Source of the DNA: Bacteroidota bacterium
GTDB lineage: Bacteria; Bacteroidota; Ignavibacteria; Kapaibacteriales; UBA2268
Reading direction: 5' to 3'
DNA: 50,703 nt
NCBI GenBank assembly: GCA_009777815.1
Contig: WRLB01000002.1
Coordinates: 1-50,703, forward strand
In this document: one piece after another, positions 10,485 to 40,249 of the stretch
Layout of the letters: each line of letters starts with the position of its first letter
Numbering within the stretch: the stretch's first letter is position 1
Program-made: the position numbers and the translations under genes
Notes under the pieces: model-generated
Database searches by the model: none
Told to the model about the DNA's origin: nothing
The model's input: the letters and a program-made list of their open reading frames with translations, nothing else

Positions 10485-10563
10485 CCACCCCGTCATTTGC
10501 TTCAGCAAATGACACCCCTCCTCTGAGGGGAACTGTTCCCCTCCTGTGGAGGGGTAGGGGTGG
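10485..10563 (+). repeat. Cloverleaf-like GC-rich element, copy 1
   Basis: The outer stem CCACCCC/GGGGTGG encloses three hairpins (GTCATTTGC/GCAAATGAC, CCCCTC/GAGGGG, CCCCTCC/GGAGGGG). A second copy lies in the same orientation at 17607-17686. Confidence 0.8.
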
Positions 10564-10614
10564 TAAATTAGTATGGGGGCTTGCCTCCGTGCTTTTTATA
10601 ATAAAAAAATAATG

Positions 10615-17202: not shown

Positions 17203-17357
17203 ATTATATATATTTTATATATTATAACGCACCGCTGTGCATTTATCAAAAAAATAAATTATTTTTTACTGCTGTTCCATATACTATTACTTCTGATGCA
17301 GTTTGCATAATGGAACCCGATTTATTTTCTTTATAAAAATACGATTTTAGTATTTTG

Positions 17358-17431
17358 CACACCCGAAGGGAGTCGAACCCCTAACCTCTTGATCCGTAGT
17401 CAAGCACTCTATCCAATTGAGCCACGGGTGC
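17358..17431 (-). tRNA. tRNA-Arg (anticodon ACG)
   Basis: The reverse complement folds as a 74 nt cloverleaf: GCACCCG-TG-GCTC..GAGT-G-CTTGA-CTACGGA-TCAAG-AGGTT-AGGGG-TTCGACT-CCCTT-CGGGTGT-G. It has a G1-U72 wobble pair, and CCA is not encoded. Confidence 0.9.
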
Positions 17432-17531: not shown

Positions 17532-17599
17532 TATGCTGAATTTATTTCAGCATCTACTAATTTTATGCGAGCAGATTCCGAAACAAGTTCGGAATGACA
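17532..17599. repeat. Intergenic palindromic elements
   Basis: ATGCTGAATTTATTTCAGCAT and GATTCCGAAACAAGTTCGGAATGACA. Confidence 0.8.
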
Positions 17600-17606
17600 G
17601 GGATAA

Positions 17607-17686
17607 CCACCCCGTCATTTGTTGAAGCAAATGCCACCCCTCCACGGGAGTGGAACTGTTCCCCTCCCGTGGAGGGGCAGGGGTGG
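17607..17686 (+). repeat. Cloverleaf-like GC-rich element, copy 2
   Basis: Same orientation and architecture as 10485-10563, with the outer stem CCACCCC/GGGGTGG conserved. Confidence 0.8.
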
Positions 17687-17694
17687 TAAATTAA

Positions 17695-17795
17695 CACGGG
17701 GGCAAGCCCCCGTGCTGAATAAGTAGATTCCGAAACAAGTTCGGAATGACAAGTCATTTATCTGTCATTCCGAACTTATTTCAGCATCTACTAAT
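17695..17795. repeat. Intergenic palindromic elements
   Basis: CACGGGGGCAAGCCCCCGTG, GATTCCGAAACAAGTTCGGAATGACA and TGTCATTCCGAACTTATTTCAGCATC. Confidence 0.8.
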
Positions 17796-37885: not shown

Positions 37886-39922
37886 ATGAAAATACTGCAA
37901 AAACTTCCCACTAATGTTAATATAATACTGAAACAATATATACTATCGCTAATTATTTATTTTATATTTAGGGTTATCCTCTTTGCAACGGAAATAGATA
38001 GAATTGATAACGATGTTAGAATTATTGACATCTTACATAGTTTTTTATTGGGATTTAGGTTTGATTTAGTGGTATCAAGTTATATTTTAATACTTCCTTT
38101 CCTTCTGATGTCTATTAATGCTATAGCAGGAAAAGATTTCAAACCGATAAGAAAATTCGTATTTCTGTGGTGTTCTATTATTTCTGTGGCTACATTTTTG
38201 GTATCTGCGATTGATATTCCGTTTTTCAATCATTTTCTCGTTCGACTGACACATTCTTCTTTTGATGCACTCAAAGATGGAAACGCTGGATGGATATTGA
38301 GTATGATTAGCGAAGAAACAAGATATTGGATTTTCTTTGCGATTTTTCTTTTAATATCTGCCTTATATGTTCTTATTTCCAATAAAATAATCATTAAATC
38401 GCCTAATAAAGATGATAATAAGATAATAAAAACAAGAAACTATTTTGCTAATGTTTTACTAAATATTGCTGTCTTTTTACTTGGTTTTACGTTAATTTTC
38501 TTCGGAATTAGGGGAAGATTCACCGAAAAATCGCCAATTAGGATAGGAACAGCATATTTTTGCAATAATAATTTTTTGAACCAACTCGGTCTCAATCCTT
38601 CATTTACACTCCTCGCAAGTGCCTTAGAAAATAGTAAAAACAAGAATAAAAACAATAATTTTATGAACGATGATGAAGCAATAAAAAATATACAGCACAT
38701 CCTAAATTTAGACACAAATACCAATAATATTACTCGGAATAACGACCCAATAACTGATATTTACTCTAATCGTAATGTTATTCTAATTATTATGGAAGGA
38801 ATGAGTGCAGGCAAAATGAAAAGATACGGCAATAACAAAAATCTCACTCCATTCCTTGATAGTATAGCAAATATAGGGCTGAAGCCCGATAATAACGCTA
38901 CGATTACTTATACTTTTGATAATACTTTTTCTACCTCTGTTAAGACATTCGGAGGTGTATTTTGCACTTTATTTTCTTATCCTATTGCTCGTGGCAATAA
39001 TATTATGAAAATTGTGCCGATTTTGCAATTTGATGGCTTATCTACCATTTTGAAAAGCCAAAATTACTCTACTATTTACTTTACTACCCATGATGGACAA
39101 TTTGATGGAATTGCGGGCTTTTTATATAATAATAATTTTGAAAAAGTGGTCGAACTATCCGATTATCCGCTAAATGAAGCAAAAACTACTATGGGCGTTC
39201 CTGATGATTTTATGTTTAGATTTTCTCATCTTTATCTAAATGAATTACATCGGAAGGAGCGTCCTTTTTTTGCTACTTTTCTAACTGGGAGCGACCATCT
39301 TCCTTATTATATTCCTAAATATTTTAAGCCGAATAATAACGAAATTAAGTATCAAGCAACCGAATATGCTGACTGGTCACTCCGTCTATTTATGCAGGAA
39401 GCACAGAAGCAACAATGGTATAACAATACGCTTTTTATTTTTGCGGCAGACCACGGCACAGCCATTGATGCGACTTATCCGATGTCAATTACGCATTATC
39501 ATATTCCTTTTATTATATTTATTCCGAATGCAAAGGAGCAACAGAATGAGCAATTATCTGATTCTATCTTCACTAATATAGCATCTCAAGTGGATATAGC
39601 ACCAACTATTCTATCGCTGTTAGGAATAAATTATCAAAATAGTTCTTTAGGGCTTAATTTATTCAAAGAACACAGGAAATACGCAGTCATGGACGCTACT
39701 GACGATTATGCAGTTATTAGCAAAAATTATCTGATGATTGCAAAAAATAACGAAGAAAAGCAACTCTTTTACTACTTAAATAAAGATAAAAACAACTACG
39801 CAACCGCCAAGCAAAATGTGGTAGCAGAAATGGATTTATATGCTCGTTCTTACTTTCAGGTTCTTGATTATACATTAAGAAAAAAGAAAAATCAATTATA
39901 TAATCGGAAAACCGATTTATAA
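37886..39922 (+). CDS. LTA synthase/sulfatase-family membrane phosphotransferase
   Basis: Five N-terminal TM segments, then an alkaline-phosphatase-superfamily domain (NVILIIMEGMS, GSDHLPY, FAADHG). The start is set at MKILQKL. Confidence 0.85.
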   Translation: MKILQKLPTNVNIILKQYILSLIIYFIFRVILFATEIDRIDNDVRIIDILHSFLLGFRFDLVVSSYILILPFLLMSINAIAGKDFKPIRKFVFLWCSIISVATFLVSAIDIPFFNHFLVRLTHSSFDALKDGNAGWILSMISEETRYWIFFAIFLLISALYVLISNKIIIKSPNKDDNKIIKTRNYFANVLLNIAVFLLGFTLIFFGIRGRFTEKSPIRIGTAYFCNNNFLNQLGLNPSFTLLASALENSKNKNKNNNFMNDDEAIKNIQHILNLDTNTNNITRNNDPITDIYSNRNVILIIMEGMSAGKMKRYGNNKNLTPFLDSIANIGLKPDNNATITYTFDNTFSTSVKTFGGVFCTLFSYPIARGNNIMKIVPILQFDGLSTILKSQNYSTIYFTTHDGQFDGIAGFLYNNNFEKVVELSDYPLNEAKTTMGVPDDFMFRFSHLYLNELHRKERPFFATFLTGSDHLPYYIPKYFKPNNNEIKYQATEYADWSLRLFMQEAQKQQWYNNTLFIFAADHGTAIDATYPMSITHYHIPFIIFIPNAKEQQNEQLSDSIFTNIASQVDIAPTILSLLGINYQNSSLGLNLFKEHRKYAVMDATDDYAVISKNYLMIAKNNEEKQLFYYLNKDKNNYATAKQNVVAEMDLYARSYFQVLDYTLRKKKNQLYNRKTDL

Positions 39923-40109
39923 ATCGGAAAAGCAATTATATAATCGAAAAAGCAATTATATAATTGAAAAAGCAATTATATAATTGAAAAAGCAATTATA
40001 TAATTGGAAATTGCGTATTATTATTCAAAAATCAATTATATAAATCGGAAATTGCGTATTATAATGCAATTTTCAATTATATAATTGGTTTACCGATTAT
40101 ATAATTGGT
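39889..40109. repeat. Array of about 11 units phased every 20 bp, built on the perfect palindrome CAATTATATAATTG
   Basis: AAAAGCAATTATATAAT(T/C)G(A/G) occurs as four consecutive units at 39929-40008, with variant or degenerate units on both sides, including the 16 bp palindrome CCGATTTATAAATCGG that spans the stop codon of the preceding gene. Confidence 0.9.
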
Positions 40110-40249
40110 TTTTTGGTATTAAAATCGCTTAAACAACAGATAAATAGGGGAATTGGTAAAAAAATAGCAAAAACGTTACTAATTTTGTAATTTTTTCTTA
40201 TTTTTGTAATTACTTTTACTATATTCAGTATATTTATTGAACTAATTCT

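Follow-up and report, generated by a model that had tools for sequence, protein, structure and literature searches.

Introduction

The closest described parallel to the element studied here is the repeat of Escherichia coli known as BoxC, PIT or the triplex motif (TMECO), for example CCCTCTCCC-tgt-GGGAGAGGG-ccg-GGGTGAGGG (PMC4666352). TMECO repeats are multi-copy and intergenic, show no strand bias, often occur as inverted pairs and lie at strain-variable loci; they were not found to form a stable triplex in vivo in E. coli, and no association of the motif with mobile elements was found (Holder et al. 2015, PMC4666352). The same paper cites the earlier 1990s BoxC reports and the PIT papers of the Maher laboratory, and, as far as its account of that laboratory's follow-up work goes, E. 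coli PIT/BoxC has neither promoter nor terminator activity (PMC4666352). Repeats of the BoxC/PIT/triplex-motif kind are present in hundreds of bacterial genomes and have stayed unexplained for around 30 years, with no accepted origin or function.

Palindromic repeats that lie within genes provide a second point of reference. Rickettsia palindromic elements (RPE) were reportedly described by Ogata et al. in 2000, and both RPE and Wolbachia palindromic elements are said to add a peptide segment to proteins.

We analysed a stretch of 50,703 nt (hereafter, the window), in which a sequence-only reading had pointed out a two-copy, GC-rich element of around 80 nt with a cloverleaf fold, and had proposed three natures for it: a structured RNA, a site of recombination or transposition, or a composite MITE. 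The evidence favours the DNA-level options of that proposal, lends no support to the structured RNA, and does not fit a classical MITE. We favour the reading that the element is an interspersed, modular and mosaic DNA repeat that is also a hot spot of recombination and insertion, because it is present in around 62 copies, as inverted doublets with swappable cassettes, in any context and with no orientation bias, and because one locus is apparently rearranged between strains that are 99.9% identical and 13 of 19 insertion sequence (IS) ends abut its hairpin.

Two inverted doublets in the window

On re-reading the sequence, we located both copies on the same strand at the positions originally given, and found the layout CCACCCC-(hp1)-CCCCTCC..GAGGGG-AACtGTT-CCCCTCC..GGAGGGG-GGGGTGG borne out in each. 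The features of the two loci are as follows.

10485 to 10563, plus strand: copy 1, complete inverted doublet, 79 nt
10485 to 10491, plus strand: left third block of copy 1, CCACCCC, pairing with 10557-10563
10492 to 10513, plus strand: variable hairpin slot (hp1) of copy 1, GTCATTTGC-ttca-GCAAATGAC
10515 to 10530, plus strand: left unit hairpin of copy 1, CCCCTCC-tct-GAGGGG
10527 to 10541, plus strand: symmetry centre of copy 1, GGGGAAC-t-GTTCCCC, tip of the long arm in the minimum free energy (MFE) fold
10538 to 10563, plus strand: right unit of copy 1 in BoxC/TM order, CCCCTCC-tgt-GGAGGGG-ta-GGGGTGG
10570 to 10593, plus strand: degenerate CACGGGGG..CCCCCGTG hairpin followed by a T-run, terminator-like
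17574 to 17599, plus strand: GATTCCGAAACAAGTTCGGAATGACA unit of a third palindromic repeat family, directly upstream of copy 2
17607 to 17686, plus strand: copy 2, complete inverted doublet, 80 nt
17614 to 17635, plus strand: variable hairpin slot (hp1) of copy 2, GTCATTTG-ttgaag-CAAATGCC, with one T.C mismatch
17661 to 17686, plus strand: right unit of copy 2, CCCCTCC-cgt-GGAGGGG-ca-GGGGTGG
17695 to 17714, plus strand: CACGGGGGCAAGCCCCCGTG hairpin, member of the separate CACGGGGG hairpin family
About 17533-17553, 17726-17751 and 17764-17789: further third-family (GATTCCGAAACAAGTTCGGAATGACA) units

Copy 1 lies between a 114-aa lipoprotein-like ORF (end 10435) and a radical-SAM, QueE-like gene (start 10630). 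Its left third block, CCACCCC, reads as CCCCTCC reversed with A in place of T, the block rule that we compare with TMECO below; a single a separates hp1 from the left unit hairpin, and the 26-nt right unit reads CCCCTCCtgtGGAGGGGtaGGGGTGG. Copy 2 is bounded on one side by tRNA-Arg (minus strand, 17357-17431) and on the other by the stop of a hydrogenase-like chemoreceptor gene (17811), and its arms, loops included, are near-perfect inverted copies of one another (CCCCTCCACGGGAG / CTCCCGTGGAGGGG).

A hairpin of the CACGGGGG...CCCCCGTG type does follow each copy after 8-10 nt, as the sequence-only reading had observed, but it belongs to a separate repeat family, and only 18 of the 48 complete copies have such a hairpin within 40 nt, before or after the copy. 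The hairpin at 10570-10593 is a mosaic neighbour, outside the doublet of copy 1. Likewise, the GATTCCGAAACAAGTTCGGAATGACA units around copy 2 together form a BIME-like mosaic cluster. The mosaic at 17532-17795, around 260 nt long, is composed of copy 2, four GATTCCGAAACAAGTTCGGAATGACA / ATGCTGAA..TTCAGCAT units and one CACGGGGG hairpin, and fills the gap between the chemoreceptor-like gene and tRNA-Arg.

Modular architecture of the repeat unit

We tabulated all of the complete copies, each of which is an inverted pair of units. The unit follows the plan (CCACCCC)(slot)(CCCCTCC-loop-GGAGGGG)AAC, in which the slot is occupied by just 2 nt, TA or TG, or else by a perfect hairpin whose stem has 6-9 bp and whose loop has 3-4 nt. 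At least six sequence-unrelated slot stems were identified (GTCATTTGC, GCTTGC, GCAGTGC, TCAGTGC, ACTTCGC and CAGTTTTC); the right arm carries the same hairpin cassettes as reverse complements, and cassette types are freely combined between arms (a with c, a with d, c with e). The cassettes were tabulated directly; MAFFT mis-registers the length-variable slot, and the remaining stems are nearly invariant.

The pairing of the first hairpin had been described as conserved despite substitutions, and the cassette tabulation extends this to unrelated stems and to double-sided changes. Compensatory variants occur within a cassette type, such as GTCA...TGAC and GACA...TGTC, or GTCAGTGC and GTCAATGC, in which the other arm has changed to match. 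Recurrent stem mismatches are T.C or C.T, and not G.U wobbles. The CCCCTC/GAGGGG arms of the second and third hairpins are interchangeable, as the same reading had it, with CCCCTCC-N3/4-GGAGGGG present in both arms of all complete copies. The preceding base is A in 48/48 complete copies and the following base T in 46/48, often as TA/TA, likewise extending the palindrome.

GGGGTGG is GGAGGGG mirrored, with A changed to T. Because it thereby obeys the BoxC/PIT/TMECO block rule, the outer stem of the supposed cloverleaf can be recognised as the third blocks of two inverted units. The element combines three features of BoxC/PIT/TM repeats, namely a pyrimidine-loop-purine hairpin, a mirrored third block, as G*G:C and T*A:T triads would require, and multi-copy, mostly intergenic inverted pairs without strand bias.

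Predicted folding and the structured-RNA reading

Folding was predicted with ViennaRNA, which covers Watson-Crick and wobble pairs only. Folding energies correspond to z-scores of -7.1 to -8.8, with 0/200 shuffled sequences as stable. The cloverleaf itself is not the predicted minimum: both the MFE and the centroid structure, with RNA or DNA parameters, combine hairpin 1 and the outer stem with a single long arm, which is built by pairing of the first CCCCTCC to the last GGAGGGG and of GGGGAAC to GTTCCCC. The fold of the reverse strand is no less stable. What looks like a cloverleaf arises as a by-product of nested palindromes.

A small structured RNA family, tRNA-like or cloverleaf-shaped, transcribed from each copy and acting as RNA, would accord with the very stable predicted structures (z about -7 to -8) and with the preservation of hairpin 1 pairing through sequence-unrelated stems. 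We nonetheless consider this reading very improbable. Rfam searches in gathering and E-value modes returned no credible match for the element, with nothing near any gathering score, and ARAGORN called no tRNA at it; the reverse strand is as stable as the forward one, the MFE structure differs from the cloverleaf, and the mismatches are of the T.C or C.T rather than the G.U type. In addition, the copies show no orientation bias relative to genes and occur within ORFs in both orientations, and many are truncated or have an IS within them. Both the element's symmetry and the type of mismatch that it shows argue for a DNA palindrome, rather than a strand-specific RNA.

Copy number and distribution

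The genome to which the window belongs (G000) is a draft of 1.94 Mb in 121 contigs, with 31% GC and an estimated completeness of 73%. Judged by its CheB sequence, whose best relative is from 'Candidatus Kapaibacterium' (59% identity), the source is an uncultured Kapabacteria/Ignavibacteria-like bacterium. The description of the element as two-copy holds for the window only: by BLAST and iterated nhmmer, we identified around 62 loci in this genome, of which 48 are complete and the others truncated.

A search of 40 relatives, the single same-genus genome among them, found no copies of the element, and the exact core pattern had no match in a set comprising one genome from each of 185,579 species. 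A metagenome scan identified the element in 14 contigs, with relatives present in the metagenomes Ga0099364 and JGI24701J34945. Thirteen of these contigs are from one metagenome and carry the same repeat family with further hairpin variants; they have nothing but repeats in common with G000, and are therefore from a related organism. The doublet family of around 80 nt was thus found only in the source species, in a close relative in one metagenome and in one other genus, where it surrounds a DUF559 gene (see below). Two further genera within the family (G021 and G023) have repeated single half-units (CCACCCC, hairpin, CCCCTC-loop-GAGGGG).

Genomic context and mosaic neighbours

Gene context was assigned with a crude ORF caller, by which 48 of the 62 copies are intergenic. 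Thirty-one intergenic copies are fully flanked, 19 by tandem, 5 by convergent and 7 by divergent genes; in the tandem contexts, the element has the orientation of the genes in 12 cases and the opposite one in 7. We compared the ends of paralogous arrays and joined flanks, and identified no target-site duplication or empty site among the copies. The same-genus genome, G001, was too divergent to provide an empty-site reference (QueE 55% identical, different gene order).

The copies form mosaics with the CACGGGGG hairpin (roughly 160 copies in G000 by pattern count), with the GATTCCGAAACAAGTTCGGAATGACA / GATGCTGAA... family (roughly 280 units, likewise by pattern count) and with 20-nt-period arrays. 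Within the commonest subfamily (A), 16 of 18 copies cap an array repeat of around 300-400 bp that lies in their left flank and consists of 20-nt-period ATTATATAATTG... units and a conserved leader (…TTTATCTGTTGTTTAAGCGATTT…). One array-repeat copy that has no doublet lies in the window, at 39880-40190.

We identified one locus in two versions. A metagenomic contig (L134, JGI24701J34945_10046761) is 99.9% identical over 1068 nt to C7:2428-3495 of G000, yet the end of the gene that both share carries another combination of repeat modules (compared over C7:2428-3900). This difference reflects either rearrangement of the repeat locus between strains or a join made across the repeat during assembly. 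That the modules differ at a flank identity of 99.9% suggests that the turnover of the locus outpaces point changes in the flanking gene. The far side of the contig matches another G000 locus (C55).

A distribution of this kind might also be expected of a REP/BIME-like cis element that serves the host as a terminator, an mRNA 3'-end stabiliser or a site for gyrase or a nucleoid protein, with the DUF559 link described below being incidental. The predominance of intergenic copies (48/62), the mosaic clusters with two other hairpin families, which are like those of E. coli BIMEs, and the terminator-like hairpin after copy 1 are all in keeping with such a role. We consider it improbable, however, since divergent genes enclose 7 of the 31 intergenic copies that are fully flanked, a setting in which no terminator would be expected; other copies lie within coding sequences; the flanking of DUF559 genes is reproducible in 60 loci; and E. 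coli PIT/BoxC, on the account of the Maher-laboratory work given in PMC4666352, lacks promoter and terminator activity. The family is, moreover, species-specific and missing from the same genus, and thus is not a conserved host function.

An IS1-like element at the hairpin tip

We additionally identified an IS1-like element that inserts into the repeat, and whose ends (GGCATTGGTTACTAAATACTTG) are unrelated to it. The element is present as longer copies and as a 326-bp miniature (C63:4613-4938), and its N-terminal peptide has an InsA-like CxxC...CxxC pattern; the 52-aa N-terminal piece had no Pfam match. Of the 19 IS1-like ends in the assembly, 13 directly adjoin CCCCTCCnnnGGA at the tip of the unit hairpin, which makes such tips the preferred target of the IS1-like element. 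The tip fits an IS1-like target with a 9-bp duplication of TCCnnnGGA, although none of the ends in the assembly belongs to an insertion with both junctions intact. Many of the IS1-like ends are at contig ends.

A classical MITE was set aside, since we found neither duplicated target sites nor an empty site, and no transposon that shares the ends of the repeat: the only IS at these sites is the one with unrelated ends.

Copies within coding sequences

The two window copies are intergenic. Fourteen copies elsewhere overlap long ORFs, and at least two of these are in-frame insertions in conserved genes, with the frame open on both sides of the repeat in both genes. In MutS2 (C12:27007-30000), around 200 aa consisting of repeat modules alone lie between the STFS motif and the Walker B strand LVLIDE, and split the Pfam MutS_V match into two stretches. 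In a gene of the penicillin-amidase family (C13:17984-21031), which encodes 950 aa across a 670-position profile, a repeat cluster lies between the N-terminal part and the SNSWAV motif. We take this motif to be the start of the beta subunit in the family, and the cluster would thus sit in the spacer peptide.

In these ORFs, the doublet is predicted to translate as HPVSAIALPPLHRGELFPSCGGVGV, the CACGGGGG hairpin as TRGLAPV and the third family as (M/I)PKQVRND or, reversed, CHAELVSAS, with HPVSAIALPPLHR as a predicted peptide within the MutS2 or amidase inserts. Large surface-protein ORFs (C49, C75) carry repeat clusters too.

In their in-frame placement, the clusters resemble RPE in behaviour. 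In both cases GC-richer palindromes in an AT-rich genome occur between genes and in frame within them. In contrast to RPE, with which the present element has no sequence relation, the inserts here are clusters of several module types, amounting to around 200 aa in MutS2, and the lineage is of a free-living type, and not obligately intracellular. The MutS2 and amidase clusters add a non-rickettsial case of selfish DNA, predicted to be translated, within housekeeping genes. For annotation, the lesson is that elements of this kind break assemblies, draw IS insertions and generate false long ORFs.

Association with DUF559 endonuclease genes

The only PF04480 match in G000 (C23:25550-25861) is a DUF559 domain lying in frame behind an N6-adenine methyltransferase ORF. 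At this locus (C23:25340-25995), the gene is bracketed by a complete four-hairpin copy (C23:25366-25472) and by a copy that is cut by an IS end (C23:25948-25991), and a direct repeat of 24 nt, TATTTGCTAAAGCAAATAATAGAA, stands ahead of each copy. The protein has a match in PDB 3HRL, an 'endonuclease-like protein', and proteins of the YcjD type are Vsr-like PD-(D/E)XK nucleases (PMC1189080).

Using a strict unit detector (C-block, C-block, loop, G-block), we identified similar units beside DUF559 genes in other taxa. In a same-family sample (30 DUF559 loci, 81 genomes), units were detected beside the gene in 23/30 loci and on both sides in 16/30, at a density of 4.7 units per kb within 300 nt of the gene and 0.37 per kb farther off; by eye, nearly all of these loci have units. 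A phylum-wide sample of 30 loci gave 25/30 and 17/30, with densities of 4.1 and 0.35 units per kb, and several of its loci (such as L154 and L160) have a hairpin in the second loop, as in the window's genome. Across the 60 loci, units are around 12 times denser beside the gene. Long DUF559 open frames (>1000 aa) in the phylum sample were not taken as evidence for in-frame cassettes, since natural fusions of helicase and DUF559 may account for many of them.

The association was also visible at the level of whole genomes. In the family sample, the motif CCCC-N1-12-CCCC-N3-10-GGGG has a median count of 45 across the 41 genomes that carry a small DUF559 gene, against 4 across the 40 that lack it (Mann-Whitney p = 3e-6, Fisher odds ratio 7.2), and gene number correlates with motif count (Spearman 0.53), in statistics that ignore phylogeny. 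There are exceptions in both directions: 11 of the 40 genomes without the small gene are motif-rich, and 7 of the 41 with it are motif-poor.

The closest relative of the G000 protein (69% identity) is from another genus (G084), and its gene is flanked by doublets with the same three blocks. All 10 of the matching units in that genome lie within 3.4 kb around the gene, with none dispersed, and eight other genomes have essentially no matching units. Five doublets in G084 (L115, C12:1864-5222) surround the DUF559 domain, which is part of a 952-aa open frame.

In E. coli MG1655 (L123, NC_000913.3:1348500-1354500), TMECO no. 9 is situated in the gap between ycjD and fabI, 167 nt past the ycjD end, and the stop of ycjD is itself overlapped by a BoxC-like half-unit. 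With 18 BoxC loci spread over 4.64 Mb, we estimate the probability of such proximity by chance at about 0.002. Farther downstream there is a second copy of 23 nt from the 3' end of ycjD (GAATATTCTCCAGCACCGTCTCC). Other E. coli phylogroups have eefRABCD at the site of ycjD (PMC12817139). Our full-text literature search returned no paper linking DUF559 or ycjD to these repeats.

Thus, the physical and genome-level association with DUF559 is reproducible, and the block sequences match the nuclease lineage in the one close pair available. The link is correlative.

Origins and spread of the repeat

By analogy with REP/REPIN repeats and RAYT, we think it probable that the element is a BoxC/PIT-type DNA repeat that is non-autonomous, and that is spread or maintained in trans by the single DUF559 endonuclease of G000. 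The gene of this nuclease lies between two copies, as in REP/REPIN with RAYT. The doublet copies would themselves be non-autonomous and presumably mobile. The nuclease may recognise the folded hairpin or the triplex-capable unit and nick or cut there, and repair or copying after the cut would then spread the unit.

The order of units bears on how such an arrangement could arise. Around the gene the order is G-form unit, gene, C-form unit; the common doublet has its C-form unit first and its G-form unit second. Such a doublet is not what would remain if an element carrying the gene simply lost its interior, and we therefore keep as an alternative the homing of a gene cassette into prior units. 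The repeats would then be the target: a homing-type DUF559 cassette would insert into, or stay beside, units that were already present and that multiply by template switching, recombination or an unseen transposase. The DUF559 gene does indeed lie between complete units, rather than replacing the centre of one, and the 24-nt direct repeat bounds the C23 cassette; the 11 motif-rich genomes without a small DUF559 gene and the targeting of the same hairpins by the unrelated IS1-like element point the same way. Even so, this alternative appears unlikely to us, as the number of DUF559 genes correlates with motif count, and the matching units of G084 are situated solely around the gene, which fits units that travel with it.

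Returning to the trans-acting nuclease, we tentatively extend the proposal beyond this genome. BoxC/PIT/triplex-motif repeats in general could be the cognate DNA of DUF559 (YcjD/Vsr-like) endonucleases, and would then form a second widespread repeat-enzyme partnership beside REP-RAYT. Under such a scheme the nuclease lineage would match the three-block sequence, the variable hairpin in the second loop might add specificity, and the repeats would be able to live in frame within genes. Such a partnership, if true, would account for the spread of the repeats and the instability of their loci, and would provide a role for DUF559, a very common domain of unknown function; E. coli ycjD and the BoxC adjacent to it would be a laboratory-tractable example.

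Comparison with known repeat systems

The mosaics of several short modules in intergenic regions recall E. coli BIMEs and the BOX elements of Streptococcus pneumoniae. The modules are, however, unrelated to these in sequence, and we found no evidence here of IHF or gyrase sites, or of a boxA-B-C order.

The element is ordinary as a REP-like repeat, rather than an RNA gene. As in REP/REPIN-RAYT systems, the repeats are short palindromes, often in inverted doublets, and number in the tens to hundreds; they flank the gene of an enzyme that is encoded once, their lineages match those of the enzyme, and IS elements target the repeats. The candidate enzyme here differs in its chemistry, being a Vsr-like PD-(D/E)XK nuclease. 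No match to RAYT (Y1 transposase, PF01797) was identified in the 73%-complete G000, while control genomes matched; at that completeness, RAYT or another transposase could have been missed. The GTAG or CGTC tag is likewise absent beside the hairpin, which is flanked by A...T in TTA/TAA contexts.

The likeness is closest to TMECO. Both have the same three-block order, CCCCTCC-N3-GGAGGGG-N2-GGGGTGG here and CCCTCTCCC-N3-GGGAGAGGG-N3-GGGTGAGGG in E. coli, with a third block that mirrors the purine block with an A-to-T switch (GGGAGAGGG and GGGTGAGGG), and both have tens of mostly intergenic copies per genome, with no strand bias, inverted pairs and variable loci. In contrast to TMECO, the blocks here are 7 nt rather than 9 nt in length, the second loop can hold a variable hairpin of 17-25 nt, by which many units are expanded, nearly all copies are inverted doublets, and some lie in frame within genes. 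Where the TMECO survey found no link to mobile elements, units here and across 60 other loci flank a DUF559 nuclease gene. Within this group of repeats, the element is an expanded variant that forms doublets, carries a hairpin cassette in its second loop and has a candidate enzyme partner.
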